NCBI GenBank assembly: GCA_964554645.1
Contig: CAZKPK010000001.1
Coordinates: forward strand, 3,697-67,696
DNA from: an uncultured Candidatus Saccharibacteria bacterium
Lineage (GTDB): Bacteria; Patescibacteriota; Minisyncoccia; Phycocordibacterales; UBA9973
Direction: 5' to 3'
Length of the DNA stretch: 64,000 bases
Shown here: positions 1,848 through 59,596 of the stretch, piece after piece
Layout: each line of letters opens with the position of its first letter
Position numbering within the stretch: the first letter of the stretch is position 1
Notes under the pieces: model-generated
Seen by the model: only the letters and a program-made list of their open reading frames with translations
Databases searched by the model: none
What the model was told of the DNA's origin: nothing
Translations under genes and position numbers: made by a program

Positions 1848-4400
1848 TCAATTGTTTTTTAACCGTAATGAATTCAAAACCACGCTGATACTGCTAAAGG
1901 CCATGGCGACAGCGGCAAAAATCGGGTTGAGCAAAATTTTGAAAAATGGATATAGAATTCCGGCGGCGACAGGAATAAAGGCAATATTGTAAAAAAATGC
2001 CCAGAAAAGATTTTGTTTTATTATTCTCATTGTCCGTCTGGAAATTTTTATAACTTCCCAAATAAGCATCAGGTCGCCTCTCATTAAAGTGATATTAGCC
2101 GACTCCATCGCGATATCCGTGCCCTCTCCCATAGCGATGCCGATATTGGCTTGAGTAAGCGCTGGAGCGTCGTTGATACCATCGCCGATCATGGCCACAA
2201 TTTTTCCTTGATTTTGAAGCTCGCGAACTTTTTCTGACTTTTTATCGGGCAGAACTTCGCTCATTACATTGTTTATACCCACTTCCGCCGCAATCGCTCT
2301 GGCAGTGCGGTTGTTATCTCCGGTAATCATCCAGACGTCTATCTTGTTTTTTTGAAGAGCCTGAACCGCTTCTCTGGATTCCTTCTTTAACACATCGGCG
2401 ACAGCTAGTGCGCCCTTTATTTTTTTATCAACGGCAAGAATCATCACCGTTTTCCCTTCATTTTCAAGCTTGGCAATATCGATCTCATAGGGAGAAATGT
2501 CAAGATTAATATCTAAAATCAGGGTCCGGTTTCCCAAATACGCCTCAACTTTTTGAGATTCAATTTGCAAAATTCCCCGTAACCCTTTTCCAGAGATGGC
2601 CTTAAAATTTTCCAATTTATACAATCCAATTTTTTCTTTTATTACTTCATCCAAGATCGCTTGATCAAGAGGGTGGGAAGATTTTTGATCTAAACTTGCG
2701 GCATATTGCAATATGGCTTGCGCTAAAGGATGTTCCGATCGCTGTTCGAGCGAAGCGGCTAAATTAAGGATCTCCGTCCGATGGCCATTATTGAAAGCGA
2801 TAATATCAGTCAACTGTGGTTTCCCTTGAGTCAAAGTTCCAGTTTTATCCAAGATAATTGTATCTATCTTGCCTCCGATTTCGAGCGAAGTGGCGTCTTT
2901 AATCAAAATTCCTCTGGTAGCGGCGTTGCCAGAGGAAACCATAATAGCCATCGGAGTGGCAAGCCCGAGCGCGCAAGGGCAGGCAATTATCAGAACTGCC
3001 ACAAAATTAACAAGCGCAAAAGTGAAAGCGGGATTCGGTCCAAAGAAAAACCAAATAAGGAAAGTTAGAACAGCGACGATAAATACCGCCGGAACGAAAT
3101 AAGAAGAAACCAGATCGGCTAATCGCTGAATCGGCGCTTTAGAGCCTTGAGCCTCTTCCACCATTTTGATGATTTGCGAAAGCATCGTGTTTTTGCCAAT
3201 CTTGGTCGCGCGGAAGGTAAAGGCTCCGAATTTATTTATAGTGCTGCCGATGACCAAACCGCCAACTTTCTTGTGAACCGGCATGGATTCTCCGGTAATC
3301 ATTGATTCATCAATTTCTGATTCTCCTTCGGTTATTTTGCCGTCAACTGGAATTTTTTCTCCGGGTCGAACAACTATCAAATCCCCAACCTGCACTTCGG
3401 ATATCGGTATTTCAACTTCTTTGCCATCCCGCAGAATTTTTGCGGTTTTGGGCTGTAAGCCAATAAGTTTTTTAATAGCTTCGGAAGCCCTTCCTTTCAT
3501 CAAAATCTCAAAATATTTTCCCAAGAGAATTAAAACAATAATGATTGCCGAAGTGTCAAAATAGGTTGCCGGTGTTATTCCGCCCTTGGTGAAAAAAACG
3601 GGAAAGACTGTGACCGCTAGGCTGTAAAAATATGCCGCCAGCGTTCCGATGGCAATCAGGGTATTCATATCAGCCGTGCGGTATTTTATAAGAAGCTTCA
3701 GCCCGCTATAAAACTGAAAACCTACCCAAAACTGCACCGGCGTTGTCAGTAAAAGAAGCGTCCAATTGTTGTTCATAATTTTGGGCACAAAAGAAAACCA
3801 CTCCGGAAAACTGCCCAAAAATATAAAAAGCGAAAGAATGCCACCGATAATAAGTTTGCGTTTCATAATTTTTACCTGTCTTTCTCGCTCGATTTTTTCT
3901 TTATCCAAAATTTCTTCTGCCTCGCCTTCTTCTTTAATTGGCTTGTAGCCGGCGTCAGAAATAACCTTGAAAATTTGATCGATATTTACTAGAGAATAAT
4001 TAAAAATCACTTTGGCCCGCTGGTTTGAAAAATCTACATCAATATTTTTTATGCCCGATAATTTTTTGATAGCTCCCTGCACGACCATGGCGCAATGCGG
4101 AGAATCCATGCCTAAAACTTTTATTGAAATTGTTTTATTATCACCGCTAACAACGAGTTCGTCTTTTTTAGTAGAGCCAACATTAACATTTTTAGAAACT
4201 AAATGATATCCTGCTCCACTTACCGCCTTTTCAAGGCTTGATTCGGAAATAATATTTTCATCAAATTCAATTAAGGCTGATTCCGAAGCAAAATTGACCG
4301 AAGCTGAATGCACTCCGGCTGTCTTAGAAAGCACGCGCTCAATTGTCGCCACGCAACTCGCGCAATGCATTCCTTGAATTTTATATGTTTCCTTTTTCAT
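1848..4400 (-). CDS. copA: copper-translocating P1B-type ATPase
   Basis: 850 aa; two HMA domains (GMHCASC; [10 protein letters not shown]), CPC motif [20 protein letters not shown] phosphorylation site, GDGINDAP hinge. Confidence 0.97.
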
Positions 4401-7243: not shown

Positions 7244-8383
7244 ATGGATAATCCGTTTAAAAAAATATTTTCCAGTATAAGAAATCTCACAAAAAGTGGA
7301 GAAGATAGCGCTGTTGGCATTGATATTGGTTCTTCCGCAATCAAGGTGGTTGAGATAAAAAGGAAAAGAGGCAAAGTGGTGCTTGAAACCTATGGAGCAA
7401 TAGCTCTTGGTTCCTATGACGCCCTTGATGTGGGGCGTGTCACCAATCTCTCGGTTGAAAAGATGGCGGAAGCTCTCAAGGAGGTCTTGAAGCAGTCCGG
7501 GATTACCACTACTTCAGGGGCTTTTTCTATTCCCATCCAATCAAGTTTAATTTTTGCCGTTGAACTTCCGGTTCAGGCTAAAGAAAGCGAGATAGCGACA
7601 ATTATTCCCACTGAAGCTCGCAAGTATATTCCGGTGCCAATTACGGAAGTTTCTCTTGATTATTTTATCTTGCCTCAAAAAGAACCTTCTTTTGAAGAGA
7701 TGAATGCAGTTGTTGATAATCCCGACATTCCGCAAAAGCCGACAGATAAAACAAGCGTGCTTGTGGTGGCGACGCAAAATGACGCAATTTCCAAATATCG
7801 TTCCATCGTTTCTCAATGCTCTCTCTCCGCCTCTTTTTTTGAAATTGAAATATTTTCTTCAATCAGGGCGAATTTTGAACACGAACTTTCTCCAGTGCTG
7901 TTGATGGATTTCGGCGCCTCCCGCACGAAACTCTCTTTGGTTGAGTTTGGAATGGTCAAAAGTTACCATACGATAGATAAAGGGGGAGCCGATATAACCG
8001 ACTCTATTTCCAAATCTTTAAGTATTCCTTTCAGTGAGGCGGAAAAAATGAAAAAAGAATTTGGTCTCTTTGAAAATCCGGTGGAAAAAAGTTTGTCGGA
8101 TATCATCAGAATCCATATTGATTATATTTTTTCTGAAGCCAATAATGTGCTGTTGGAGCATGAGAAAAGATACAATAAAACTATAAGCAAAGTGATATTT
8201 ACAGGCGGCGGATCTCTTTTGAAGGGGCTGAAAGAAGTGGCGGCAAATAATTTTCGAGCGGAAATAGAAATCGGCCATCCTTTCAGCAAGGTCAATGCTC
8301 CAGCCTTTTTGGAAAAAGTTTTGGAAACGATGGGTCCCGAATTCGCCGTCGCCTTGGGACTGGCGTTGCGAAAGTTGCAGTAA
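7244..8383 (+). CDS. pilM: type IV pilus assembly protein PilM (actin-like ATPase)
   Basis: 379 aa; GIDIGSSAIKVVEI N-terminal actin-fold motif, FTGGGSLLKGL. Confidence 0.9.
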   Translation: MDNPFKKIFSSIRNLTKSGEDSAVGIDIGSSAIKVVEIKRKRGKVVLETYGAIALGSYDALDVGRVTNLSVEKMAEALKEVLKQSGITTTSGAFSIPIQSSLIFAVELPVQAKESEIATIIPTEARKYIPVPITEVSLDYFILPQKEPSFEEMNAVVDNPDIPQKPTDKTSVLVVATQNDAISKYRSIVSQCSLSASFFEIEIFSSIRANFEHELSPVLLMDFGASRTKLSLVEFGMVKSYHTIDKGGADITDSISKSLSIPFSEAEKMKKEFGLFENPVEKSLSDIIRIHIDYIFSEANNVLLEHEKRYNKTISKVIFTGGGSLLKGLKEVAANNFRAEIEIGHPFSKVNAPAFLEKVLETMGPEFAVALGLALRKLQ

Positions 8384-8389
8384 AAAATT

Positions 8390-8437
8390 ATCCACCCCGT
8401 CCTTTGATTACAAAGTCCACCCCTCAAGAGGGGAATC
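8390..8437 (+). repeat. family A hairpin repeat (unit)
   Basis: ATCCACCCCG-[CCTTTGATTACAAAG]-TCCACCCCTCAAGAGGGGAATC; 47 nt identical to 16013-16059; starts 7 nt after pilM stop. Confidence 0.9.
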
Positions 8438-8444
8438 AGAAAAA

Positions 8445-8945
8445 ATGAAAGAAACTACCCCAAAAAAAGAAAAGTTTAAAGAAGTAATTGTTTCAGATGA
8501 AATTAGAAAATATCTTTCAGAAGCTACATGGCTGAAAGAGGGGGAAGATGTTAGACTCCCGGATTATATAAGACTCAAAACTGAAATAAGAGATATTTTA
8601 GTCCGAGTTGGAATTTGGTCGGATGAATTTTCTAAATGGCTAGATATGAATCTTGACGGTGTAAGTTTGCTGGGCAAACAAATTGAGGCAGTAGGCCAAT
8701 GGATGGAACGCAAAGATAATAAATATAGAAAAGAAAACTTAGAACATTACCGTGCTGGTGCAAAAACAAGCCTAGAATATTTGGAAGGCTGGTCTCCAGC
8801 ATTTGAAAAGTGGCTTCTTGATGGTTTGCCAGGAGATCTGCAAAAAGTTGGTGAAAACATGGATTATATAGGGAGAGTGTCTAGCACTATCGGAGCTATT
8901 AATATGGCAAAAAGATTGCTTAAGAAAAAAAAAGATCAAAAGTAA
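8445..8945 (+). CDS. hypothetical protein (accessory insertion in pil operon)
   Basis: 166 aa from ATG 8445 (MKETTPKKEKF...). The track ORF 8295 start reads through repeat A1 and overlaps pilM, so it is trimmed. Confidence 0.6.
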   Translation: MKETTPKKEKFKEVIVSDEIRKYLSEATWLKEGEDVRLPDYIRLKTEIRDILVRVGIWSDEFSKWLDMNLDGVSLLGKQIEAVGQWMERKDNKYRKENLEHYRAGAKTSLEYLEGWSPAFEKWLLDGLPGDLQKVGENMDYIGRVSSTIGAINMAKRLLKKKKDQK

Positions 8946-9026
8946 ACTATATTTCAACATGAGGAAGCGATATAAACAGAAAAGTAATAATCTAGATTAA
9001 AATAACTATATGCGCAATAGGCAACC

Positions 9027-9112
9027 ATCCACCCCGTCTCGACTAAAGTCGAGTCACCCCTCAAGAGGGGAACGTCCACCCCGACGCAAGCGTCACCCCT
9101 CAAGAGGGGAAT
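9027..9112 (+). repeat. family A repeat, tandem pair
   Basis: Two units: ATCCACCCCG-TCTCGACTAAAGTCGAGT-CACCCCTCAAGAGGGGAA and TCCACCCCG-ACGCAAGCGT-CACCCCTCAAGAGGGGAAT. Confidence 0.9.
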
Positions 9113-9162
9113 GGAATCCAAAATCTCTATATCCATATTGGGAAATTCCTAAAAACAAAATT

Positions 9163-9522
9163 TTGACTGATAGGGCAAAAGATTTAAGAAAGGCGGGTAA
9201 TTTATCTGAAGTTATTTTTTGGCAAACTTTTAAAGATAAAAATAAATTAGGTTTTGATATTGATAGACAAGTTATAATCGGCAATTATATTGTAGATTTT
9301 TTTATTCCCGAACTAGGTTTAGTTTTTGAGATAGACGGTTCAAGTCATGACGATAAGCTTGAATATGATGCTGAACGAGATGCTTTTATGAGAGATTTAA
9401 ATTTAAAAGTGGTTAGAATTCTTGATATTGATGTGAAGAAGAATCTAGGAAGTGTCTATCAATTTGTATTAGAAACAATACATAAAAGAAAAAAGGATGC
9501 ATTTGAATTATTCCCCTCTTGA
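9163..9522 (+). CDS. DUF559 (Vsr-like/PD-(D/E)XK) endonuclease-domain protein
   Basis: LRKAGNLSEVIFWQ..GFDIDRQVIIGNYIVDFFIPELGLVFEIDGSSH matches the DUF559 core. TTG 9163 is my start guess; ORF upstream to 9010 is repeat-encoded. The TGA stop lies inside the right-hand repeat. Confidence 0.75.
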   Translation: MTDRAKDLRKAGNLSEVIFWQTFKDKNKLGFDIDRQVIIGNYIVDFFIPELGLVFEIDGSSHDDKLEYDAERDAFMRDLNLKVVRILDIDVKKNLGSVYQFVLETIHKRKKDAFELFPS

Positions 9523-9596
9523 GGGGTACTCCGACTTCAGTCGGAGTGGGGTGGATGTATGAGGGGTGACCCGATGACCATCGGGTCGGGGTGGAT
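9510..9596 (-). repeat. family A repeat, tandem pair in inverted orientation
   Basis: ATTCCCCTCTTGAGGGGTA-CTCCGACTTCAGTCGGAG-TGGGGTGGAT + GTATGAGGGGTG-ACCCGATGACCATCGGGT-CGGGGTGGAT; reverse complement of family A consensus. Confidence 0.9.
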
Positions 9597-9665
9597 AGCT
9601 GTAGAACCAGAGTTATGCACATTATATTTCACTTAAGTTTGTTTTTGTAATATAATTAAGATACG

Positions 9666-10271
9666 ATGGAGCAGAGTTTCCAAACATCATTTATACCTAA
9701 AAAACCGATAGTGAAAGAACGCGCCATTCCGGCGCGACCTATTGGTATTTTTATCATCATTACTATTTTTGTTTTATTCACCGTGCTTTTGGCAACCGTC
9801 GCTCTTTATTTCTATAAAGGGATTTTGGCAAAGAACATTACGCAAATGGAGAATGACTTAAATCTGGCTAAAAATCGTTTTGAACCTTCTAAAATAACGG
9901 AGCTCCAGCTATTAGACAAGCGTCTGCGCGCATCAAGTGAAGTTCTGTCTCATCATATAGCTATCACGCCTGTCTTTCAAGCATTGCAAGCCATTACTAT
10001 GAAAACTGTCCGTTATACTAAGTTCAGTTATGATTTTGGGAATACGAAAGATGCGAAAGATACGAAAGTGATTATCAAATTAAGCGGCCAGGCAGTCGGT
10101 TATCGCTCGGTTGCTCTGCAATCTGATCTTTTTGCTAAAAATAAAAATTTAATTGATCCAGTTTTTTCCAACCTGGCGCTTGATGACAAAGGCAATGTCC
10201 TTTTTGATCTGGAATTTTCGGTCGATCCGTCTTTGGTTGATTATAAGCAAATGCTCTTAACCCAAAGTTAA
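9666..10271 (+). CDS. PilN-like pilus assembly membrane protein
   Basis: 201 aa; single TM (IGIFIIITIFVLFTVLLATVALYF); position in pilM-N-O series; call is position/topology based. Confidence 0.55.
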   Translation: MEQSFQTSFIPKKPIVKERAIPARPIGIFIIITIFVLFTVLLATVALYFYKGILAKNITQMENDLNLAKNRFEPSKITELQLLDKRLRASSEVLSHHIAITPVFQALQAITMKTVRYTKFSYDFGNTKDAKDTKVIIKLSGQAVGYRSVALQSDLFAKNKNLIDPVFSNLALDDKGNVLFDLEFSVDPSLVDYKQMLLTQS

Positions 10272-13625: not shown

Positions 13626-14684
13626 ATGGATTATAAGAAAAAACTTGAAGAACTTATTTTGACCGTTATTCGCGAAAACGGATCGGACTTGCATTTAGGC
13701 ACTGGAAGAGTGCCAGTTATTCGCGTGTCGGGAGAATTGATATTTCTTGCCAAGCAACCAGTTTTTACAAAAGAAGATATGATTGGAATTTTGAGTGAAG
13801 TGTTGGAGAAAGCGAAAGTCCAGAAATTTATGGAAAGTCAGGAAGCCGATTTCTCTTATGATTTCCGCGGGGAAGCGCGGTTGCGCGGCAATGCTTTTTT
13901 TCAGAAAGGTCTAATCTGCGTGGTTTTTCGATTGGTGCCGAAAGTAAAGACTATCGCCGAATTGCATTTACCTGCCATTGTTGCAGATCTTGCCCGTAAA
14001 AAGCAAGGTTTTTTTCTAGTAGTTGGTCCCGTTGGGCAGGGCAAGTCGACCACTCTGGCCGCGATGGTGGATCTAATCAACAATGAAAAGGCGCGCAATA
14101 TCATAACAATTGAAGACCCGATTGAACATGTCTATGTGCCCAATAAATCCATCATCAGCCAGCGCGAAGTCGGTATTGACACCGCCGACTTTCATCTGGC
14201 GCTTAAATCGGCTTTCCGAGAGGATGTAAATGTAATAATGATAGGCGAAATGCGCACGCCAGAAACGATAGCGACTGCCGTAACTGCCGCCGAAACCGGA
14301 CACCTGGTGCTTTCCACTTTGCACACCAATAACGCTTCTCAGACCATAGACAGGATTATCGACTCTTTTCCGGGCAGTCAACAAGATCAAATTCGCTCCC
14401 AGCTTGCCGCCTCGCTGCTGGGTATTTTTTCTCAAAGGCTGATCCCTCGAATTACCGGCGGACTTATTCCCGCCTTTGAGCTTCTTTTAAATAATAGCGC
14501 CGTGTCAAATTTAATTCGGGAGAAACGCACGCATGAAATAGACGTGGTCATAGAAACAGGGATGGAATCCGGCATGATTGACTTGAACCATTCCTTGATG
14601 GAGCTGGTGCGCGCCGGAGAAATTACGATTGAGAACGCTTACCAGTATTCTCTCAATCCTAAGGGTTTGGAACGGATGATTTAA
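13626..14684 (+). CDS. pilT: twitching motility ATPase PilT
   Basis: 352 aa; GPVGQGKSTTLA, FREDVNVIMIGEMR, GHLVLSTLHTN. Confidence 0.95.
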   Translation: MDYKKKLEELILTVIRENGSDLHLGTGRVPVIRVSGELIFLAKQPVFTKEDMIGILSEVLEKAKVQKFMESQEADFSYDFRGEARLRGNAFFQKGLICVVFRLVPKVKTIAELHLPAIVADLARKKQGFFLVVGPVGQGKSTTLAAMVDLINNEKARNIITIEDPIEHVYVPNKSIISQREVGIDTADFHLALKSAFREDVNVIMIGEMRTPETIATAVTAAETGHLVLSTLHTNNASQTIDRIIDSFPGSQQDQIRSQLAASLLGIFSQRLIPRITGGLIPAFELLLNNSAVSNLIREKRTHEIDVVIETGMESGMIDLNHSLMELVRAGEITIENAYQYSLNPKGLERMI

Positions 14685-14689
14685 AAAGA

Positions 14690-14732
14690 CCACAGGTCAG
14701 ACCTGTGGGATTCCCATAGGTCTGACCTATGG
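14690..14732. repeat. family B palindromes, tandem pair (REP-like)
   Basis: CCACAGGTCAGACCTGTGG (14690-14708) and CCCATAGGTCTGACCTATGG (14713-14732) between pilT stop and pilC start. Confidence 0.9.
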
Positions 14733-14744
14733 AACAATAAAGAT

Positions 14745-15957: not shown

Positions 15958-16059
15958 GATTCTCCTCTTGAGGAGTACTCCGACTCAGGTCGGAGGGAGG
16001 TGGATGAGTTTTTCCACCCCGTCCTTTGATTACAAAGTCCACCCCTCAAGAGGGGAATC
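15958..16059. repeat. family A inverted doublet (REPIN-like)
   Basis: Reverse unit GATTCTCCTCTTGAGGAG..GGGAGGTGGAT (15958-16005) faces forward unit TCCACCCC..CCCCTCAAGAGGGGAATC (16013-16059); 18-nt terminal inverted repeats, 2 mismatches. Confidence 0.9.
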
Positions 16060-16134
16060 GCTACCCCTGTGGATAACTTTCTTGCATGTTTTTTTGCCTC
16101 TATATGATATAATTACTCCATTAGAAAAATATTT

Positions 16135-16162
16135 CAGCCATAGGCTGATCCGCCTTAGGCGG
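16135..16162 (-). repeat. family D double-hairpin repeat
   Basis: CAGCCATAGGCTGATCCGCCTTAGGCGG = reverse complement of CCGCC-TAA-GGCGG-AT-CAGCC-TAT-GGCTG. Confidence 0.8.
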
Positions 16163-16203
16163 AAAAAATAAGTCGAAAATATATTATTATTAGTTAATTA
16201 TTA

Positions 16204-16233
16204 TTGACTTGCCCCGCTGGGGCGGGGTAGATA
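16204..16233 (+). promoter_or_regulatory. promoter-like element with GC hairpin just upstream of major pilin gene
   Basis: TTGACT (16204-16209), hairpin CCCCGC-TGGG-GCGGGG (16212-16227), TAGATA (16228-16233), ATG at 16242. Confidence 0.35.
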
Positions 16234-17955: not shown

Positions 17956-18783
17956 ATGCTTTTTTTGCTTTTGGTTATTTTTTTCATCCTCGGTCTCATC
18001 ATCGGCAGCTTTTTGAATGTGATAATTTATCGGCTGAATACAGCCAGATCGTTCGGAGGCAGGAGCGCTTGTATGTCTTGTCAGAACAGGCTTTGCTGGT
18101 ATGAACTTATCCCACTCTTTAGTTTTTTGGGTCTTGGGGGGAGATGCCGAAGCTGTAAAACTAAAATTTCTATCCAATATCCGTTGGTGGAACTTGCGAC
18201 TGGCTTGATTTTCGCCTTGTTATTTTTTAAACTGCAAGATGTTTTTTATACTAATTCTCTGGTTTTTTTCATCACTTATGATTACTTTGCTTTATTGTTT
18301 TCACTTCTTCTAGTCATTGCCACTTATGATCTCAAACATAAAATAATTCCGGATATTTTGTCTTTTGCTTTTGGCGCGCTTGCTTTTATTGGCCTATTTT
18401 TCTTCTCCGCCCAAGGCGGATCCGCCTTTGGCGGAAATAATATTTTTTACCCCCATTTTCCCACAGTTTTAGAATTTTTGTCGGGTGGATTAATAGCGTT
18501 ACCTTTTGCTTTTTTTTGGCTTGTATCTTCCGGTCGGTGGATGGGGTTAGGGGATGCCAAGCTTGCGCTCGGCATTGGGTGGTTTTTAGGCATATCTTCT
18601 GCGCTCTCGGCTTTAGTGGTTGCTTTCTGGTCTGGAGCCATCGTCGGAATAATTCTCGTTATTTTTTCCAGAAATAGAAAAATTGGCAGGCTGGGGATGA
18701 AAAGCGAAATTCCTTTTGCCCCTTTCCTAGTTTTTGGCGCGTTTCTAGCTTTTATTTTTGGATTGAATCTTTTTGGAATTTAA
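17956..18783 (+). CDS. pilD: prepilin peptidase (A24 family)
   Basis: 275 aa; CMSCQNRL..CRSCKTKI zinc motif, YPLVE, GLGDAKL active-site Asp. Confidence 0.93.
   Translation: MLFLLLVIFFILGLIIGSFLNVIIYRLNTARSFGGRSACMSCQNRLCWYELIPLFSFLGLGGRCRSCKTKISIQYPLVELATGLIFALLFFKLQDVFYTNSLVFFITYDYFALLFSLLLVIATYDLKHKIIPDILSFAFGALAFIGLFFFSAQGGSAFGGNNIFYPHFPTVLEFLSGGLIALPFAFFWLVSSGRWMGLGDAKLALGIGWFLGISSALSALVVAFWSGAIVGIILVIFSRNRKIGRLGMKSEIPFAPFLVFGAFLAFIFGLNLFGI
18407..18434 (+). repeat. family D-like double hairpin inside pilD ORF
   Basis: CCGCC-CAA-GGCGG-AT-CCGCC-TTT-GGCGG, translated SAQGGSAFGG. Confidence 0.75.
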
Positions 18784-20593: not shown

Positions 20594-23222
<2,629 letters not shown>

Positions 23223-29438: not shown

Positions 29439-31367
29439 ATGAAAATTTCTTATAATTGGCTCAAATGGTATATACCGGAAGCGCCTCCCGCAAACAAACT
29501 TGCGGATATTTTTAATTACCATATTTGCGAAGTGGAGAGTGTCCAACACCGAGTGTTGGACAAAGATAAAGATTGGATTTTTGATTTAAAAGTTTTGCCG
29601 AACCGCGCGCATGATTTACTTTCACATCAGGGAGTCGCTCGCGAGCTTGCTTCACTTTTAGATATCAAATATGTAGATCCCACGCCGAAATATAAAATTC
29701 CCGCCTCCGCCAAGGCTGCCCCCTTCGCTGAAGTGGCTACGAAGGCCAAGTCGGCGGGCAAGCCGGAATTAAAAATTGATGTTCAAACGCCTTTATGCAG
29801 GCGATATATGGGCAGAATTATAAGGGGAATAAAAATCGGTCCCAGTCCGGAGTGGATGGTGAAGCATTTAGAATCAATAGGACAGAGAAGTATAAATAAT
29901 ATTGTAGATGCCGCCAATATTGTAATGTTTGATTGCGGACAGCCGACTCATGCTTTTGATCTGGATAAAATGAATAGCAAGATAATAGTGCGCGAGGCAG
30001 AAAATGACGAAGACATAACCACTTTAGATAATCAGGGAATAAAATTAAAAAGTTCAAATATGGTGATTGTAGATTCTAAAAATATTTTAGCGATTGCCGG
30101 AATAAAAGGCGGGAAGATTGCGGAAGTGGACAATAATACAAAAAATATAATTCTTGAGGTTGCTAATTTTGATCCGGTTTCGGTGCGGAAAACAGCTCAA
30201 GCCTTTAATCTATTTACCGACGCGCGAAAGAGGTTTGAAAATGACCTGTCGCCAGAATTGGCACCATATGCCATGCGCGAACTCTCGGCTCTCATTTTTG
30301 AAATGTGTCCGGACGCTATTTTTGAAGATGTTGTGGATGTTTACCCCCACACCAATGATATTGGTGTGGGGGTTTATCCTGAAAAACAAAAGGAGAAAAA
30401 ACTTTCTTTTTCGGCTGAAAGAATTTCAAAAATTTTAGGACTCAAAGTTTCAGTTAAAGAAATAGAAAATATTTTGCAGAGATATAATTTTAGGTATAAA
30501 GAAAATAAAGGGAAATTTGAGGTTGTTGTGCCACCGATGCGTCTTGATTTAGCAATAGAAGAAGATATGGCGGAAGAGATAGGTAGAATTCTGGGATATG
30601 ATAAAGTAAAACCACAAATTCCCCACATGTCTGACATGTGGGAACCACAGGTTAATGAGATTTATGCAAAAATTTCCTGGGTCAGAAATAAATTATTGGC
30701 TGATGGATATTCCGAAGTGATGACTTATACTTTTCGAGAAAAGGGAGAAATAGAAGTGCAAAATAGCGCTTCCGATAAAAAGTTTTTGCGAACGAATTTA
30801 ACTGATGGATTGAAAGAAAGCGTTAAATTAAATCACGCCAATGCCCCGCTGTTAGGAATTGACGAAATTAAAGTTTTTGAAATTGGAACTGTTTTCAAAA
30901 AAGATAAAGAGCAGATAAATATTTGTTTTAGTGACAAAAAAAATATCACAGAAGTTTCTTTAAATGATTTTTGTAAAGATATGCTTTCTAGTGATTCTCC
31001 TCTTGAGGAGTACCCTTTAGGGGGAGGTGGAAAATTTATCCACCCCGTCGCAAGCGCCACCCCTCAAGAGGGGAATAGATTCAAGATGTGGTCTTTGTTT
31101 CCTTTCATTGCGCGCGATATCGCTGTCTTTGTGCCGGAAAAAATTAAGAGTTTGGAAATAGAAAAAATAATAAAAAAGAATATGGGAAATATGGTGATTC
31201 GAGGTCCGGAACTTTTTGATGAATTCAAAAAAGGCAATCAGATTTCTTATGCCTTCAGATTGGTTTTTCAATCTTACGATCGGACACTGACAGACGCAGA
31301 AGTGAATGAAATTATGGATAAAATAACTGACAAAATTAAGAAGAATAAAGGTTGGCAAGTAAGGTAA
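29439..31367 (+). CDS. pheT: phenylalanine--tRNA ligase beta subunit (reduced architecture, several repeat-derived inserts)
   Basis: 642 aa; MKISYNWLKWYI, LPNRAHDLLSHQGVAREL, B3_4 IVDAANIVMFDCGQPTHAFDLDK, C-terminal FPFIARDIAVFV. Confidence 0.93.
   Translation: MKISYNWLKWYIPEAPPANKLADIFNYHICEVESVQHRVLDKDKDWIFDLKVLPNRAHDLLSHQGVARELASLLDIKYVDPTPKYKIPASAKAAPFAEVATKAKSAGKPELKIDVQTPLCRRYMGRIIRGIKIGPSPEWMVKHLESIGQRSINNIVDAANIVMFDCGQPTHAFDLDKMNSKIIVREAENDEDITTLDNQGIKLKSSNMVIVDSKNILAIAGIKGGKIAEVDNNTKNIILEVANFDPVSVRKTAQAFNLFTDARKRFENDLSPELAPYAMRELSALIFEMCPDAIFEDVVDVYPHTNDIGVGVYPEKQKEKKLSFSAERISKILGLKVSVKEIENILQRYNFRYKENKGKFEVVVPPMRLDLAIEEDMAEEIGRILGYDKVKPQIPHMSDMWEPQVNEIYAKISWVRNKLLADGYSEVMTYTFREKGEIEVQNSASDKKFLRTNLTDGLKESVKLNHANAPLLGIDEIKVFEIGTVFKKDKEQINICFSDKKNITEVSLNDFCKDMLSSDSPLEEYPLGGGGKFIHPVASATPQEGNRFKMWSLFPFIARDIAVFVPEKIKSLEIEKIIKKNMGNMVIRGPELFDEFKKGNQISYAFRLVFQSYDRTLTDAEVNEIMDKITDKIKKNKGWQVR
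29700..29758. repeat. GC-rich imperfect long hairpin inside pheT
   Basis: CCCGCC..CCTTCG / CGAAGG..GGCGGG arms; translated PASAKAAPFAEVATKAKSAG; strong local GC excess. Confidence 0.55.
30343..30373. repeat. 31-nt perfect palindrome inside pheT
   Basis: ACCCCCACACCAAT-GAT-ATTGGTGTGGGGGT; flanked by GTTTAC/GTTTAT; translated YPHTNDIGVGV. Confidence 0.85.
30622..30642. repeat. family B variant palindrome inside pheT
   Basis: CCCACATGTCTGACATGTGGG (21 nt), translated PHMSDMW (compare HRSDLW from canonical copies). Confidence 0.8.
30993..31076. repeat. family A inverted doublet inserted in frame in pheT
   Basis: GATTCTCCTCTTGAGGAG..GGGAGGTGGA + ATCCACCCCGTCGCAAGCGCCACCCCTCAAGAGGGGAAT; 84 nt = 28 codons (DSPLEEYPLGGGGKFIHPVASATPQEGN). 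Confidence 0.9.
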
Positions 31368-33507: not shown

Positions 33508-34095
33508 ATGAAAAAATTAATCTTAGCTTCAAGTTCAAGCACAAGGAAAAATTTGCTTACAGAAGCCGGCTTGAATTTTGAAATTGATCCAAGTAGTTAC
33601 GAAGAAGATATAACATTATTAATGTCTCCAAAAGAATTAGTGGCTCATTTATCTTACGGTAAAGCAAAAGATGTAGCATCGAGGCACCAAGAAGCCATAG
33701 TTCTAGGAGCTGATACAATTATTGTCTATCAAGATAAAATTCTCGGTAAACCTCATACATCGGAAAGAGCTAAAGAAATGTTAAAAATGTTAAGTGGTAG
33801 GGCACACTTAGTTGTTACTGGTTTTACAATAATTGATACGAAAAATAATCATAGCATCTCCAAAGTTGTAGAAACAGAAGTGTTTTTCAAAAATCTCACA
33901 GATAGAGAAATAGATAATTATGTAGCTACCGGTGAACCACTGAATAAAGCAGGGGCTTATGCAATTTTAGAGAATGGTGGCAAATTTGTTAAAAAGATCG
34001 AAGGAAGTAGAACAAATGTGTCAGGTTTACCCATGGAGGAGTTAATGAATGTTCTAAAAAATTCCCATAGGTCAGACCTATGGGATGTGTTATAA
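33508..34095 (+). CDS. maf: Maf-like nucleoside triphosphate pyrophosphatase
   Basis: 195 aa from ATG 33508; KLILASSSSTRKNLL, GADTIIVYQDKILGKP, AGAYAI; last residues (HRSDLWDVL) encoded by a family B palindrome. Confidence 0.88.
   Translation: MKKLILASSSSTRKNLLTEAGLNFEIDPSSYEEDITLLMSPKELVAHLSYGKAKDVASRHQEAIVLGADTIIVYQDKILGKPHTSERAKEMLKMLSGRAHLVVTGFTIIDTKNNHSISKVVETEVFFKNLTDREIDNYVATGEPLNKAGAYAILENGGKFVKKIEGSRTNVSGLPMEELMNVLKNSHRSDLWDVL
34064..34084. repeat. family B palindrome (left flank of RAYT gene)
   Basis: CCCATAGGTCAGACCTATGGG. Confidence 0.9.
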
Positions 34096-34102
34096 TAGCA
34101 GT

Positions 34103-34780
34103 ATGAGTCTCAGAGATTCGAATTTAGTGGAAAAAGAGTATTATCATATTTACAATCGCGGTAATGGAAAAAATAAAATTTTTAATTCCATAGAAGATTA
34201 CGATCGTTTTTGTAAACTTCTTTTTATTTGTAATTCTGAAAGAAGTTTTACATTCAGAGATTCAGTCGTAGATCAAAAAATTGATGCCTGGGATTTTGAA
34301 AGGGGAGAACCGCTTGTGGAAATATGTGCATGGGTTTTAATGCCTAATCATTTCCATATAATTTTAATTTCCCATAGGTCGGACCTATGGGATGAGAAGT
34401 ATAATCCAATAACGGAATTTATGAGAAAACTTTCTACGGCTTACGCTATGTATTTTAATAAGAAATATAACCGCACTGGATCTCTTTTTGAAGGAAAGTT
34501 TAAGTCTAAACATATTAGCAAAGATAATTATTTCCATTATTTATTTTCTTACATTCATCTTAATCCAATTAAATTAATCCAACCAGATTGGAAAGAAAAT
34601 GGTATCAAGAATAAAAAAGAAGCGATTGCTTATCTTATGAATTTTAAATATTCAAGTTTTCAAGATTTTTATGGTGTCTCTAGAAAAGAAGGAAAGATAA
34701 TAAATAAGAATTCGTTACCAGAAGATTTTAAATACAATCATGTTGAGGAACTTTTTGAATGGATAACTGATTCCCCATAG
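34103..34780 (+). CDS. IS200-like Y1 HUH transposase, REP-associated (RAYT-like)
   Basis: YHIYNRGN, HUH motif LMPNHFHIIL, catalytic Tyr motif YIHLNP; flanked by palindromes at 34064 and 34773. Confidence 0.85.
   Translation: MSLRDSNLVEKEYYHIYNRGNGKNKIFNSIEDYDRFCKLLFICNSERSFTFRDSVVDQKIDAWDFERGEPLVEICAWVLMPNHFHIILISHRSDLWDEKYNPITEFMRKLSTAYAMYFNKKYNRTGSLFEGKFKSKHISKDNYFHYLFSYIHLNPIKLIQPDWKENGIKNKKEAIAYLMNFKYSSFQDFYGVSRKEGKIINKNSLPEDFKYNHVEELFEWITDSP
34371..34391. repeat. family B palindrome inserted inside the RAYT ORF
   Basis: CCCATAGGTCGGACCTATGGG, 21 nt = 7 codons (SHRSDLW), 2 residues after the HUH motif. Confidence 0.9.
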
Positions 34781-34795
34781 GTCAGACCTATGGGG
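34773..34795. repeat. family B palindrome (right flank; provides RAYT stop codon)
   Basis: CCCCATAGGTCAGACCTATGGGG; the TAG at 34778-34780 is the stop. Confidence 0.9.
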
Positions 34796-39948: not shown

Positions 39949-42117
39949 ATGCGACTCAAAACTCTTGAACTGAATGGCTTTAAATCTTTTTCTCAAAAAA
40001 CAGTTTTGGAGTTTGATAACAGTATTGTCTGCATTGTCGGTCCGAACGGTTCAGGAAAATCAAATGTAGTAGAAGCCATCCGTTTTGTCTTGGGCGAGCA
40101 ATCAATGAAATCAATGCGTGGCAAGACGGGCGTTGATCTCATTTTCAAAGGATCCAAAAATTTGCCTAGGAAAACGCGGGCGGCCGTTACAATATATTTC
40201 AATAACTCTGACAAAATTTTTAGGCTTGAGGATGGTGTAGGAGAAAACATGAATTTGAATTATGACACTATCAGCATAACGCGCCAGGTTTTCCCTGACG
40301 GACTCAATAAATATATTTTAAATGGGACAGAAGTGCGCCTGAAAGATATTCACCACCTTCTGGCCTCGGTTAACATAGGTTCTTCCGGGCATCATATTAT
40401 TTCCCAGGGCGAGGCTGATAGGATTCTGAATGCCAGCCCAAAAGATAGGAAGGAAATGGTGGAAGATGCGTTGGGGCTCAAAATTTACCAGTATAAAATA
40501 AAAGAATCTGAGAGAAAACTGGAAAGAACAGAGAACAATATGAAAGAAGTGACCATGTTGCGCAGAGAAAATGCTCCGCACCTTAATTTCTTAAAGAAAC
40601 AAGTAGAAAAATTTGAAAGGGCGAAAGAAATGCAGGCAGAGTTAGCAATTCTCTACCAAGAATATTTAAAAAAAGAAAACGTTTATTTAAATAAAGAGAA
40701 GGAAAATTTTCTCGCAGAAAGAAATAAAATAGCCAAAGAACTGGAAAGTGTTGTTAGTAAAATTTCTCTGACTGAAGACAGTGGTTCAGCTAAGGGAAAT
40801 CAAAAAATAGAGGAGCTAAGAACTATTGAGCAAAAATTAAATGAAATCCGCAGCGCCAAGGGAGAAATGAACAGAAAACTGGGAAGAATTGAAGGGATGA
40901 TAGAGGCCAAACAGAATAGAGTTAAAATTTCTGGCCGGTGTCCCATGTGTGGCAGAGAGTGGGGGGAAATGAGCAAAGAACAACTCGAAAACAGAGAAAA
41001 CAATCAGCAAGAATTAGCAGAATTGAAAAATTCTCAAGCTGGTATTCTAACGCAGGTGCAGGAAATGGAAAATAAAGAGAAAGAGCTTGTCGATCAGATA
41101 GAAGAATTGAAGCAGGAAATAAATAAACAGATGGAAACCTTGCGCGATTTGGAGCGGGAGAAGTTCAGCTTTAAGGTTAGGCATCAGGAATTGTCTTCAG
41201 CTTTGGAACTGGTGCGCATCAAAGAAACGAATTTAAAAGGCAGGCTTGAAGCCTTTGAAAGTGAGATCAAAGAAGGTGTAGCGCTTATAGGTCAAGAGAT
41301 TTTGTCCTATCCGCCCGAGGCGGACCAGCCTTGGGCTGGTAAAGAAATAGATGAAACAAGGCAAGCTGAGTTAAAGAAAAAAATTGAGCGTTTGAAAATA
41401 AAATTGGAAGATGCCGGTCTTGGCGGCGGAGCGGAAGTTTTGAAAGAATTCAAAGAAGTTTCGGAGAGGGATAATTTTTTAGCGAAAGAAATGGAAGATT
41501 TATCTAAAAGCATGGTGGCGTTGCAAAAGCTCATAGAAGATTTAAAGGAAAAGATAGACACAGAATTCAAGGAGGGTATCAAAAAAATAAACAAAGAATT
41601 TCAAGAATTTTTCTCCTTAATGTTTGGCGGGGGGACGGGATCTCTTGCGATAGTGGTGGAGAATAAAAAGAGACGAAGTATGAGCGAAGAAGAGGCTAAA
41701 TTCAGCGAAGCTGAATCGCCCGACGCTTCTGAAGAAGCGTTTAGGGAAGAGATTGTTTTTGAACAGGGCATAGAAATAAATGTTTCACTTCCTCATAAAA
41801 AGGTCAAAGAGCTTCAGGCGCTCTCGGGCGGGGAGCGATCACTCACTTCTATTGCTCTTCTCTTTGCGATGTCGCAAGTGAATCCTCCGCCATTTTTGGT
41901 GCTTGATGAAACCGATGCTGCGCTGGACGAAGCCAACTCGCGCAAATATGGAGATATGTTGGAAAAACTTTCCAAACATTCTCAGCTTATTGTTGTTACC
42001 CACAACCGCGAGACGATGTCCCGCGCCGGCGTGCTCTATGGCGTAACGATAGGCGGAAATGACACCTCCAAGCTTCTTTCTGTTAAATTCGAAGAAGCCA
42101 CCCAAATTGCGAAATAA
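39949..42117 (+). CDS. smc: SMC-family chromosome segregation ATPase, short form with central CxxC instead of a hinge
   Basis: 722 aa; N-head LNGFKSF..GPNGSGKSNVVEAIRFVLGEQS; C-head LSGGERSLTSIALLFA..LVLDETDAALD; CPMCGREW at residues 331-338; no hinge-like segment seen. Confidence 0.9.
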   Translation: MRLKTLELNGFKSFSQKTVLEFDNSIVCIVGPNGSGKSNVVEAIRFVLGEQSMKSMRGKTGVDLIFKGSKNLPRKTRAAVTIYFNNSDKIFRLEDGVGENMNLNYDTISITRQVFPDGLNKYILNGTEVRLKDIHHLLASVNIGSSGHHIISQGEADRILNASPKDRKEMVEDALGLKIYQYKIKESERKLERTENNMKEVTMLRRENAPHLNFLKKQVEKFERAKEMQAELAILYQEYLKKENVYLNKEKENFLAERNKIAKELESVVSKISLTEDSGSAKGNQKIEELRTIEQKLNEIRSAKGEMNRKLGRIEGMIEAKQNRVKISGRCPMCGREWGEMSKEQLENRENNQQELAELKNSQAGILTQVQEMENKEKELVDQIEELKQEINKQMETLRDLEREKFSFKVRHQELSSALELVRIKETNLKGRLEAFESEIKEGVALIGQEILSYPPEADQPWAGKEIDETRQAELKKKIERLKIKLEDAGLGGGAEVLKEFKEVSERDNFLAKEMEDLSKSMVALQKLIEDLKEKIDTEFKEGIKKINKEFQEFFSLMFGGGTGSLAIVVENKKRRSMSEEEAKFSEAESPDASEEAFREEIVFEQGIEINVSLPHKKVKELQALSGGERSLTSIALLFAMSQVNPPPFLVLDETDAALDEANSRKYGDMLEKLSKHSQLIVVTHNRETMSRAGVLYGVTIGGNDTSKLLSVKFEEATQIAK
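41311..41339 (+). repeat. family D double hairpin inside smc
   Basis: CCGCC-CGA-GGCGG-AC-CAGCC-TTG-GGCTG; translated PPEADQPWAG. Confidence 0.8.
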
Positions 42118-45287: not shown

Positions 45288-45403
45288 TTATATACAATAC
45301 AGATATGGAGCAGTGCATCCGGTCGTAAAACTGCTAAACATTTCCACCTGAGGTGGATTCGCCTTTGGAGGAAAAAATTAAAAGTAATTTACTGAAATAA
45401 CAT

Positions 45404-50119: not shown

Positions 50120-53100
50120 ATGAAAACTTTAAACACAACTGAATTTAATTCGATCGCCCTACGGCTTGCGTCTCCGGAACAAATCAAGGAGTGGTCATTC
50201 GGGGAAGTGACGAAGCCCGAGACGATAAATTATCGCACTGGCCGATCCGAACGTGGAGGTCTCTTTGATGAAAAAATATTTGGACCGGAAAAAGATTACG
50301 AATGTTATTGCGGAAAATACCGCCGGATTCGTTATAAAGACATCATTTGCGAGAAATGCGGAGTGGAAGTTACCCGTTCGATAGTGCGCCGAGAGCGAAT
50401 GGGACACATCGAGCTTGGAACTCCCGTCTCGCATATTTGGTTTCTGCGCGGGGTGCCTTCTCGGATGAGCATTCTGCTTAATATATCCGTGACGGATCTG
50501 GAAAAGGTAATATATTTTGCCGGATATATAATTACTAAAGTTCACGAGGATGAGAAAGAAGCTGTTATTGCCAATTTAGATAAGGAATACAAATCTAAAT
50601 TAAAAAATGCGACCGATGATGATACTCGAGAAAAATTGAAAAATCTGCTTTCTATTACCAAGAAAGAAATTGGGGAAATTTATGAAGGGAAAGTTCTGAA
50701 TGAAATTTCTTTTCATCACTATTCTTTGAAATACGGAACTTGTTTTGAGGCCAATATAGGCGCTGAAGCTATTTATTCCATTTTTAAAAATTTAGATTTA
50801 GATAAATTAAAGACCCATACCGAAAAGATGATCGAAAAAGCCAGCGTGGCTGAAAAAGAGAAATTACAGAAAAGGCTTTCTCTTATTCGCGCTATGACCT
50901 ATGCCGGAATTCGTCCGGAATGGATGTTTTTGACCGTTTTTCCAGTTATTCCTCCTGTCTTGCGCCCGATGGTCGCTTTAGATGGAGGTCGGCACGCGAC
51001 TTCCGACTTGAATGATCTTTATCGTCGAGTTATTAATCGAAACAATCGCTTGAAGAAGTTGAAAGAAATCAATGCGCCGGATGTAATTTTGCGAAATGAA
51101 AAAAGAATTATTCAAGAAGCGGTTGATGCGCTGATCGATAATTCAATTGCCAAACAGAATGATTCTGCCGCCATGAGTCAGTCTCAAAAGCGTCCCCTAA
51201 AATCGCTGTCAGACAATTTAAAATCAAAACAAGGTCTTTTCCGCCAAAATTTGCTTGGAAAAAGAGTAGATTATTCAGGACGTTCAGTGATTGTCGTTGG
51301 TCCCGAGCTTAAGCTTAATCAATGCGGATTGCCAAAACACATGGCGCTGGAACTTTTTAGGCCATTTGTAATTTCCAAAATCTTGCAAGCGGAATTGGCG
51401 TTTAATATTCGCGGGGCAAACAAGCTGATAGAAGAACGAGGGGGGGAAGTCTGGGCAATGCTGGAAGAGGTTATTGCCGGAAAATACGTTCTCTTGAACC
51501 GCGCGCCGACCCTCCATCGTTTAGGTATCCAAGCTTTTAATCCGATTTTAATCGAGGGAAATGCTATTCAAGTTCACCCTCTTGTCTGCCAAGCTTTCAA
51601 CGCTGACTTTGATGGAGACCAAATGGCAGTCTATGTTCCTTTGCTTGAAGAAGCGCAATGGGAGGCAAAAGAGTTCATGGCTTCGAACAAGAATTTACTA
51701 AAACCCCAAAATGGCGATCCGATCGTGCATCCGCGCATGGATATGGTGCTTGGAAGTTTTTGGATGACGAAATCAATAGAAGGAGAAGTGGGTGAAGGCA
51801 AGTATTTTTCTAGGCCCAACACCGCCGTCACGGCCTATGATTATGGGATTATTTCTATGCGGGCCAAAATAAAAGTTCTTCCAATGGATAAACCCAAGTA
51901 TAAGAAATTTAATGGAGAAATTTTTGAAACGACCGTCGGCAGAATCATATTCAATAGTATTTTGCCGGATGATTTTCACTATGTAAATGATGAAATGACT
52001 CAAGATAGGTTGTCTTCTCTCTTGGATGAATTGATTATGCACTCGGGAGTTGAAAATATTCCCCATATTTTGGATACAATTAAAGCTTTTGGTTTTAAAT
52101 ATTCTACTATCTCCGGCACCACTTGGGGGTTGGATAATGTTTCTGTGTCTTCCGAGAAACCGAAAATTATAGCCGAAGGCAAGAAACTTGAAAAAGAAAT
52201 AATCTCCCAGTGGCAGGAAGGTCTTTTATCTGAGGAAGAAAAATATCAAAAAGTTATTGAAGTTTGGACGCATATGAAGAAAAATTTGGAAAAAGTTTTA
52301 CCCAAGACGGTTGACAAACACAGTTCCACTTACGATATATTTACTTCTAAAGCCAGAGGCACGATGAGTTCTTTGATGCAGATGACTGGAATGATCGGGC
52401 TGATTCAAAATAACCAAGGCAAAACCCTGGAATTTCCGATTATCCCTTGCTATCAAGAAGGGCTTTCCCCAATTGAATATTTCGTTATTACTCATGGCGC
52501 TCGCAAAGGCGCTTCCGATACCGCGTTAAATACCGCCAAAGCTGGATATCTAACTCGCAGATTGGTTGATGTGGCGCAGGATGTGGTTATCACTGAAGTA
52601 GATTGCGGAACCAAAGAGGGCAGGATAGTTACCAAAGAAAATATTTCTGGAATTGAAATTCCGCTTTCAAAAAATATCCGCGGGCGGGTATTGGCGGGAG
52701 ATCTTAAAAACAAAAATGGCAAGGTAGTTTATAAAAAAGGGTTTTTAGTCACGAAAGAGGAGGCCTACAATATTGAAGGAGCAGGTTTTACGGAAGTATT
52801 TGTCCGTTCTCCTTTAACCTGCCGCACTGTTCATGGTCTGTGTGTCATGTGTTATGGACTTGACTTAGGACGAAATCGTTTAGTGGAGCTTGGCGAAGCG
52901 GTCGGCATTATCGCGGCTCAGGCCATCGGAGAACCGGGAACTCAGCTTACGCTTCGCACCTTTCACGCTGGGGGCGTTGCCGGCACTGATATTACCACCG
53001 GTCTTCCGCGTGTCGAAGAAATATTTGAAAGGAGAATTCCTAAAAATCCGGCCATTATTTCTGAAACCGATGGTGAAGTGATCGAAATAAAAATAAAAGA

Positions 53101-59551: not shown

Positions 59552-59596
59552 ATTCCCCTCTTGAGGGGTGGCTCGGTAATCCGAGACGGGGTGGAT
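59552..59596 (-). repeat. family A repeat unit directly after dsbA-like stop
   Basis: ATTCCCCTCTTGAGGGGTGG-CTCGGTAATCCGAG-ACGGGGTGGAT. Confidence 0.9.

Follow-up and report, generated by a model that had tools for sequence, protein, structure and literature searches.

The 64,000-nt stretch of contig CAZKPK010000001.1 analysed here (the window) carries a family of short dispersed repeats, family A, in which a central hairpin of variable sequence is held between conserved boxes. By identity and anatomy it is highly probable that family A is the Paceibacteria branch, within the candidate phyla radiation (CPR), of the repeats described elsewhere as BoxC, PIT (potential intrastrand triplex) or triplex motif (TM), and a genetic linkage between family A and the gene of a DUF559 nuclease is nearly certain. 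The observations comprise the anatomy of the units, covariation in their hairpin, a rule of doublet formation, the gene linkage and presence/absence differences among relatives. Taken together with spread as doublets and copying driven by the nuclease, class membership and linkage make up the reading that we cautiously favour as a whole. BoxC/PIT/TM repeats were already known from E. coli in the 1990s, and the small nucleases of DUF559 form a very large family for which hardly any function has been assigned. Family A represents a hairpin-bearing, often intragenic variant of this known class, and the recurrent linkage to DUF559 looks new.

A covariance model built from 24 equal-length units and run over the window with filters off recovered ten family A units, about one every 6 kb and five per strand, besides one weak relic and one probable chance match (Table 1). 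The 3' box CCACCCCTCAAGAGGGGAAT, allowing up to three mismatches, matched seven times in the window and not once in 100 shuffles. Canonical units have the sequence TCCACCCCG ... CACCCCTCAAGAGGGGAAT (consensus TCCACCCCG(t)C), and variant units carry the 5' box CCACCTCC and the 3' box CTCCTCAAGAGGAG. Two collections of further loci were assembled, one with the DUF559 protein as query (72 genome loci) and one with the 3' box alone as a DNA pattern (120 metagenome loci and 15 viral loci). Model searches across these collections yielded 310 units in total, the window included, from more than 190 related loci. A sequence-only reading of the window had reported REPIN-like inverted doublets built around a folding segment; its coordinates and sequences for units and doublets hold on re-reading, and every stem pair that it quoted is present.

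In the central helix of the 24 seed units, all eight base pairs vary on both sides. Paired cells make up 91.7% of the alignment, whereas shuffled units give 74% and slid partner columns 36-62%; in 122 independently recovered metagenome units the value is 92.7%, against 40-60% slid. The central segments are diverse (165 of 253 are distinct), and 59% of them contain a perfect stem of at least 4 bp as compared with 9% of shuffled segments, while some hairpin types, limited in number, reappear unchanged in different genomes. In the central hairpin pairing is maintained and sequence is free, and the covariation test thereby bears out the earlier claim of a segment that varies but always folds.

Read on the minus strand, a unit runs from a C-rich arm (CCCCTC) through a loop to a G-rich arm (GAGGGG), and from there through a second, long loop to a third block, GGGGTG, which is the reverse complement of the 5' box and mirrors the G-rich arm. 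The sequence-only reading had described the conserved flanks as terminal repeats; they do form terminal inverted repeats, but the 5' box and both arms also constitute this three-block motif. The canonical unit (CCCCTC/GAGGGG/GGGGTG) gives 6/6 canonical purine-motif triplets (G.G-C and T.A-T), and so does the variant unit (CTCCTC/GAGGAG/GAGGTG). Canonical and variant are separated by transitions in the 5' box (CCACCCC to CCACCTC) and in the 5' arm (CCCCTC to CTCCTC) and 3' arm (GAGGGG to GAGGAG) of the second hairpin, and the three changes of the variant fall in one triplet, in the same register, converting C-G.G to T-A.A. The canonical triple is carried by about 220 units and the variant triple by about 44, with a further 5-8 mixed; these figures count sequences and not independent events. 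The hybrid unit at 9510-9556 combines a variant-like GTAC and a variant-type hairpin (CTCCGAC..GTCGGAG) with canonical boxes, which suggests exchange between the two subtypes.

A unit can thus be predicted to form a hairpin together with an intrastrand purine-motif triplex. Loop 2 of family A, at 12-27 nt, forms its own hairpin and exceeds the short loop (1-6 nt) of the ITxF definition. When the triplex rule was applied to ten repeat sequences, a perfect third block (6-10 triplets) was found in eight, seven of which flank DUF559 genes. The scores were 6/6 for family A canonical, family A variant and the repeat of locus L019; 7/7 for locus L025 and for Sphingobium; 8/8 and 7/8 for two Clostridia examples; and 10/10 for both Sinorhizobium (S.) meliloti and Deinococcus. 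The E. coli motif was only partially resolved by the same script. As the arms of the other repeat families differ in sequence from those of family A, their matching third blocks are independent support for the motif.

BoxC, PIT and TM_ECO denote one element, CCCTCNCCC-N3-6-GGGNGAGGG-N3-GGGNGAGGG (Holder et al. 2015, PMC4666352, where the earlier BoxC/PIT work of Bachellier and of Hoyne/Maher is cited). TM_ECO has been shown in vitro to adopt a stable triplex; it occurs in more than 260 genomes and is linked to rearranged loci, with no known function (PMC4666352). Both TM_ECO and family A are built of three blocks, in which a C-rich arm is followed by a G-rich arm and then by a second G-rich block that mirrors the first. 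Both are dispersed, multi-copy and highly conserved, show no strand bias and have no transposase nearby. In both, inverted pairs join two subtypes, always type A with type B in E. coli and canonical with variant in family A. They differ in that the family A blocks measure 6 nt rather than 9, in that loop 2 is long and bears the covarying hairpin whereas that of TM_ECO is 3 nt, and in that family A often lies within open reading frames (ORFs) whereas TM_ECO is reported always to be intergenic. The hosts of family A are CPR bacteria of about 38% G+C.

The structure is probably one of DNA, not RNA, because a purine-motif triplex does not form in RNA (PMC4666352), single units between co-directional genes have no orientation bias and about one third of the elements lie inside ORFs. 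Of the earlier proposal of selection on structure, in DNA or RNA, the structural part stands and the RNA alternative is improbable. Between co-directional genes, eight single units have the same orientation as the genes and nine the opposite one, so that the check for strand bias relative to transcription that the sequence-only reading had called for returned none. It is very improbable that the units are RNA-level elements, such as terminators, mRNA stabilisers or small RNAs, kept by RNA folding and with no tie to DUF559. The covarying hairpin would suit elements of this kind, as would the many copies located just past stop codons and one orthologous site at which a doublet occupies the place of a terminator-like hairpin in a relative. 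However, besides the balanced orientations and the presence of roughly a third of the clusters within ORFs on either strand, the three-block covariation fits a DNA triplex, Rfam gave no family match at gathering or permissive thresholds (window, doublet and DUF559 loci of other phyla), and the linkage to DUF559 is strong. The region 8300-9700, with five units, contains no terminator-like site, the unit tail being AAT and sometimes AATTTT; on this ground and the lack of orientation bias, a reading of the units as intrinsic terminators was rejected.

Both doublets of the window, at 15958-16059 and 30993-31076, are head-to-head, with the variant unit on the left, the canonical unit on the right and terminal inverted repeats of 17-18 nt, in agreement with the roughly 18 nt first reported. 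The variant/canonical asymmetry noted for these two loci proved to be general. Across all unit sets, 43 of the 45 variant units stand head-to-head with a partner. In 40 cases this partner is a canonical unit, and two variants are never seen head-to-head. The pattern-selected metagenome set contains 45 head-to-head pairs versus 5 tail-to-tail and 7 tandem pairs. Spacers are typically 0-14 nt, as in a REPIN, which is defined by two inverted units and a short spacer. What spreads is mostly, it appears, a doublet in which a canonical and a variant unit stand head-to-head.

As single-stranded DNA, the doublets are predicted to fold into a cloverleaf (z = -6.4 and -3.8) with an outer stem of 17-19 bp formed by the two 3' boxes, two unlike inner hairpins and a central stem formed by the two 5' boxes. 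Since the halves bear different hairpins, the doublet folds as a cloverleaf or four-way structure and not as one long REPIN hairpin. Because one half is a variant, the outer stem is mismatched, with T.G when one strand folds and A.C when the other does. A miniature inverted-repeat transposable element would combine terminal inverted repeats with a target-site duplication and would descend from a transposase-encoding insertion sequence; in family A, inverted ends of 17-18 nt are present, no target-site duplication was seen at the sites compared, and the sole linked gene is that of the nuclease.

The ORF at 9010-9522 matches DUF559 (Table 1) and also the solved structure 3hrl (E 5.6e-9). The catalytic-type residues D96, E107, D109 and H113 and several aromatic residues (W71, Y93 and F97 among them) are invariant among nine sequences ranging from CPR bacteria to Neisseria, and the nuclease looks active. 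Two forward units bracket the gene on its 5' side and two reverse units on its 3' side. Its reading frame begins upstream of the forward units, continues through both and ends at a TGA in the 3' box loop of a reverse unit. Although unit length and frame differ, 17 of 18 related genes have a frame that opens with ATG and runs through the unit.

The association between family A and DUF559 was found from either direction. Together, 33 DUF559 loci contain 105 units; 73 of these are at most 150 nt away from the gene, in a zone covering 4.5% of the sequence. In the repeat-selected loci, a DUF559 gene is present in 10 of 120, with units no more than 200 nt away in nine of those ten, as against a background in the flanks of about one DUF559 gene per 500 kb. 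Homology between loci extends from about 35-45 nt upstream of the forward unit to the 5' box of the reverse unit, and one metagenome-assembled genome harbours a second, decayed copy of the cassette that is 93% identical, from unit to unit only. The cassette position is retained in related genomes, where the DUF559 gene is single-copy, and this constancy looks like vertical descent. The literature searched contains no link between DUF559 and repeats, although most subscription journals lie outside its coverage, so that this absence is not proof; the TM_ECO study itself makes no mention of ycjD (the E. coli DUF559 gene), endonucleases or Vsr, and the DUF559 link is absent from it (PMC4666352).

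Some further features of the cassette region were noted. In the related locus L007, a unit pair and the DUF559 gene directly follow pilM. Relative to L007 and L004, about 600 nt are added in the window between unit 8390-8436 and units 9027-9112; this segment is bracketed by direct units and contains, at 8445-8945, an ORF of 166 amino acids with no family match. Breaks in the 3' box loop were seen in the window unit 9559-9596 and at both ends of the L033 copy. A general rule that units end in this loop was dropped, the cases being few and most of the seemingly incomplete boxes being loop variants.

Whether the DUF559 nuclease acts on family A units is a matter on which we are evenly divided. 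In the proposed mechanism, the nuclease would recognise either the unit in its folded or extruded state or the mismatches (T.G and A.C) that arise when a canonical/variant doublet folds back, and would nick or cut it. Repair of the break, with copying from other units, would then lead to spread, replacement and homogenisation. Doublets land between genes and, in about one quarter to one third of cases, in frame within genes. The logic would be that of the REPIN/RAYT system, with a nuclease in place of the tyrosine transposase. Whereas the linkage is observed, the enzymatic step and the way in which copies colonise new sites are the parts of the proposal that we infer.

Several points weigh against this proposal. 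To our knowledge, no experiment or structure ties DUF559 to these repeats, and we know of no strand-transfer activity for a lone PD-(D/E)xK nuclease, which is not a classical transposase. Neither a target-site duplication nor a clean empty site turned up at the sites compared. The cassettes occur in two opposite layouts, the 3' boxes facing the gene in the clade of the window and the 5' boxes facing it elsewhere. Gene-bearing cassettes are canonical/canonical whereas free doublets are canonical/variant, so the doublets are not simple deletion derivatives of the cassettes. The variant subfamily may have had a single origin, in which case the three-way change would represent few independent events. 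The triplex stems of 6 nt are short, and triplex formation is a prediction. Holder et al. found no mobility genes near TM_ECO (PMC4666352). Finally, the DUF559 protein of Caulobacter is tied to cytosine methylation and T:G repair, a host function.

The layout of the cassettes bears on a different explanation, according to which DUF559 is a selfish homing-type gene that cuts the doublet and copies itself into it, the repeats being spread otherwise, by gene conversion, slippage or another enzyme. In more distant relatives (Limisphaerales, Kapabacteria, Dojkabacteria and Gracilibacteria) the order is reverse unit, gene, forward unit. In these 'type II' cassettes the gene lies exactly within the head-to-head spacer, its start codon 3-4 nt after one unit and its stop 11 nt before the other, as homing would predict. 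DUF559 groups with Vsr, which nicks at T:G mismatches, and with the homing endonuclease I-Bth0305I (PMC3239194), so Vsr-fold homing endonucleases do exist; these are likewise small nucleases of the Vsr/DUF559 cluster (EDxHD in I-Bth0305I), seemingly selfish and bounded by target sequence (PMC3239194). They differ in residing in group I introns or inteins and in carrying NUMOD DNA-binding domains, whereas the DUF559 gene is free-standing between units. Cassettes are also rare relative to doublets, and a decayed second cassette exists. Nevertheless, homing is unlikely, given that the free doublets and gene-bearing pairs differ in subtype composition, that in the clade of the window the gene sits between 3' boxes, not in a doublet spacer, and reads through a unit, that the constant cassette position in related genomes suggests vertical descent, and that no other candidate enzyme is linked to family A.

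Somewhat less likely still is the possibility that DUF559 is a host repair nuclease for triplex or hairpin DNA or for T:G mismatches, the adjoining repeats sensing or regulating its expression and the repeats at large being retained because they serve the host, for instance in structuring the genome or in its variability. The Caulobacter DUF559 protein VsrA is SOS-induced and causes DNA damage when the cytosine methylase is lost. A role of this kind would also agree with the stable triplex of TM_ECO in vitro and the more rearranged state of TM loci, with the single-copy, positionally conserved DUF559 gene of relatives and with the read-through of the unit in 17 of 18 genes. It leaves unexplained, however, the inverted units at both ends of the gene, the homology that stops at the units, the decayed duplicate cassette and the in-frame insertions in essential genes. 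The proposal of nuclease-driven copying remains the one we prefer.

The same architecture is encountered outside the CPR. DUF559 relatives in Clostridia (33-40% identity) are flanked by inverted copies of another repeat, CCTTC(C/T)CC-loop-GG(G/A)GAAGG followed by a variable hairpin and GGATGAGG, built on the same plan; 39 of 71 of its boxes lie within 150 nt of a DUF559 gene. Among cultured bacteria, triplex-type repeats in inverted orientation enclose the DUF559 gene in S. meliloti, Deinococcus aetherius and Sphingobium, with inverted-repeat scores of 208, 71 and 54, respectively, versus control maxima of 24-33, and the S. meliloti repeat occurs at 19 places in its record. In E. coli, copies are found only downstream of ycjD, where a degenerate motif spans the stop codon and a full TM follows about 160 nt downstream. 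As the 51-nt TM motif has a median of 16 places per genome (5,426 genomes), a given gene would have a TM no more than 200 nt away by chance in well under 1% of cases. The linkage of DUF559 with triplex repeats therefore encompasses CPR bacteria, Clostridia, Alphaproteobacteria and Deinococcus and, more weakly, E. coli. In a separate, large screen, 'DUF559 domain-containing protein' is 14-fold enriched among predicted inversion targets, an enrichment not interpreted there (PMC9881135).

Downstream of ycjD (locus L216, 930-1150), a partial duplicate of the last ~40 nt of the gene (GAGACGGTGCTGGAGAATATTC...) has the degenerate stop-codon motif on one side and the full TM on the other, and may have been left behind when the site was rearranged long ago.

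We regard it as a tentative and rather doubtful extension that DUF559 proteins are the missing partner enzymes of BoxC/PIT/TM repeats across Bacteria, acting as structure-specific nucleases that nick or cut folded triplex-hairpin DNA from the CPR to E. coli (ycjD). If this were true, DUF559 would spread and homogenise repeats and cause instability at such sites, in a manner resembling REPIN/RAYT but based on the Vsr fold. The BoxC/PIT/TM repeats form triplexes in vitro and lie at unstable loci, with no function, origin or enzyme assigned, and the DUF559 linkage provides a concrete test. It joins two problems, the triplex repeats and the function of DUF559, into one question that can be addressed via E. 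coli ycjD.

In its logic, family A is REPIN-like, as the sequence-only reading had it: as in REPIN/RAYT (Bertels and Rainey 2011; Nunvar 2010), short palindromic units spread as inverted doublets, one gene lies between inverted units, apparently inherited vertically at a fixed position, and unit type and gene clade co-vary. Membership in the REPIN/RAYT system did not hold up. The bracketed gene encodes a PD-(D/E)xK nuclease and not a Y1 HUH transposase, the GTAG tag is lacking, the doublet halves are different hairpins of two fixed subtypes, and many copies are intragenic. The weakest of the explanations considered, and a most improbable one, is that family A is a true REPIN system mobilised by the IS200/RAYT-like tyrosine transposase of the same genome. 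The window does contain a RAYT-like gene (34085-34780), and inverted doublets are a hallmark of REPINs. That gene, however, is flanked by perfect copies of a different, 21-bp palindrome, CCCATAGGTCnGACCTATGGG (34064-34084 and 34774-34794), and interrupted by a third copy in frame (34371-34391), right after the HUH motif; no RAYT-like gene stands beside family A units in any locus. RAYT was consequently rejected as the partner enzyme of family A. The RAYT-like gene and its palindromes are a classical REP/RAYT pair that coexists with family A and DUF559.

Two further families of repeats invite comparison. Rickettsia palindromic elements (RPEs) resemble family A as palindromic repeats inserted in frame in coding genes, including essential ones, and translated as an extra peptide, but they are longer and unrelated in sequence. 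We know of no enzyme described as associated with RPEs. The CGTC-tagged repetitive extragenic palindromes (Di Nocera et al. 2013, PMC3733652) are likewise dominated by head-to-head dimers, and many family A units have the form CCCCGTC-stem-loop-stem-CCA; according to the authors, these repeats lack a dedicated transposase (PMC3733652). Their stems begin with AT and measure 8-9 bp, without a conserved second hairpin or triplex blocks, whereas the CGTC of family A varies, with GCC and GGC as alternatives. Assignment of family A to this group was not adopted, the stem rule and box architecture being different.

Family A often lies inside genes. Of 59 head-to-head doublets, 14 lie in frames that are open for at least 60 codons on each side, and a cruder ORF classification places 41 of 133 clusters inside ORFs, on either strand, with most others between co-directional genes. 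The CPR variant of the class is notable for being dense in a tiny genome and for having one quarter to one third of its elements translated inside genes, pheT among them. The pheT doublet is 84 nt, or 28 codons, long, and the ORF 29439-31367 (PheT) reads through it as DSPLEEYPLGGGGKFIHPVASATPQEGN. It is positioned in the linker directly before the last domain, FDX-ACB (B8), and alignment to solved PheT chains starts immediately after it. A clean empty site was not found for pheT, the closest homolog being only 65% identical and the linker hypervariable, so that insertion boundaries could not be fixed.

Among PheT homologs P0001-P0090, the linker between the catalytic-like and the last domain (alignment columns ~330-385) is hypervariable in Paceibacteria. 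Seemingly repeat-encoded peptides recur in it (NSxAFAxGDIxQGxH; FAQSLGSSLRSATPSQKHTG; PLAGTFRxQNFS), which points to the linker as a probable hot spot of small insertions.

Presence/absence differences among relatives indicate turnover of units. At the pilC-pilin site, the window has a doublet that begins 5 nt past the stop of the T2SS-F/PilC gene; locus L014 has the same layout with a different canonical hairpin, L010 a remnant and L004 none. Elsewhere, two sequences with 94-98% identical flanks differ by one whole unit. The 47-nt units 8391-8437 and 16013-16059 are identical, as the sequence-only reading had stated, but its conclusion that they were recently copied does not follow with any force. 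A second genome (L005) has the exact unit even though its DUF559 DNA matches that of the window at only about 80% identity, so the identity reflects constraint, homogenisation or transfer as much as recency.

Table 1. Family A units and associated genes in the 64-kb window.
Feature	Position	Strand	Score	Context
DUF559 (Vsr-like PD-(D/E)xK) nuclease gene	9010-9522	+	PF04480, E 1.5e-21, 76.8 bits (cut-off 20.6)	
Single canonical unit	8390-8436	+	71.8 bits	Between pilM and next ORF
Canonical unit, first of tandem	9027-9073	+	69.1 bits	5' end of DUF559 ORF
Canonical unit, second of tandem	9074-9112	+	49.1 bits	5' end of DUF559 ORF
Hybrid unit	9510-9556	-	69.4 bits	3' end of DUF559 gene
Unit cut within 3' box loop	9559-9596	-	22.6 bits	3' end of DUF559 gene
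Variant unit	15959-16005	-	51.3 bits	Left half of head-to-head doublet 15958-16059
Canonical unit	16012-16058	+	70.6 bits	Right half of doublet 15958-16059; same as unit 8390-8436
Weak degenerate relic	16197-16232	-	16.1 bits, E 0.02	Just upstream of pilin gene
Variant unit	30994-31032	-	36.2 bits	Left half of doublet 30993-31076, in frame within pheT
Canonical unit	31038-31076	+	53 bits	Right half of in-frame pheT doublet
IS200/RAYT-like tyrosine transposase ORF	34085-34780		Pfam Y1_Tnp E 5e-4, below cut-off	YYHIYNRGN..IF and HFH motifs
Single canonical unit	59552-59596	-	60.1 bits	5 nt past stop of DsbA-like gene 59602-60330 (minus)

The relic at 16197-16232 consists of TCTACCCCG and the hairpin CCCCAGCGGGG, without a 3' box. 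In the viral part of the pattern-selected collection, true units occur in L081 only, the other matches being chance or coding matches, and none of the 15 contigs carries a DUF559 gene. L081, a 4-kb IMG/VR contig classed as viral, holds two true family A units 160 nt apart (3772-3968). Loci L073, L076 and L087 share a unit-like remnant within a coding region (..TPLTPQEGNGE..).

Additional repeat families are present in the window. The 21-bp palindrome family of the RAYT-like gene recurs as a tandem pair between ORF 13626-14684 and pilC (14689-14733) and, at 30622-30642, in frame in pheT, where it reads IPHMSDMWE and homologs read IPKINFKPK; in the PheT homolog P0089, a RAYT-like N-terminus is fused exactly at the pheT position of this palindrome. 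A third family, consisting of back-to-back hairpins (TCCGCCnnnGGCGGA TCCGCCnnnGGCGGA AAA), is found at 16134-16170, 18406-18442, 41310-41346, 45343-45379 and 56145-56181; several copies are within long ORFs (e.g. 39949-42117 and 55762-57579) and may also be translated. A fourth palindrome family, CTTGGCGGTTTAACCGCCAAG, partly arranged as tandem pairs, occurs at 21354-21380, 21764-21809 and 53551-53602, inside the long ORFs 21045-23222 and 50120-53791.

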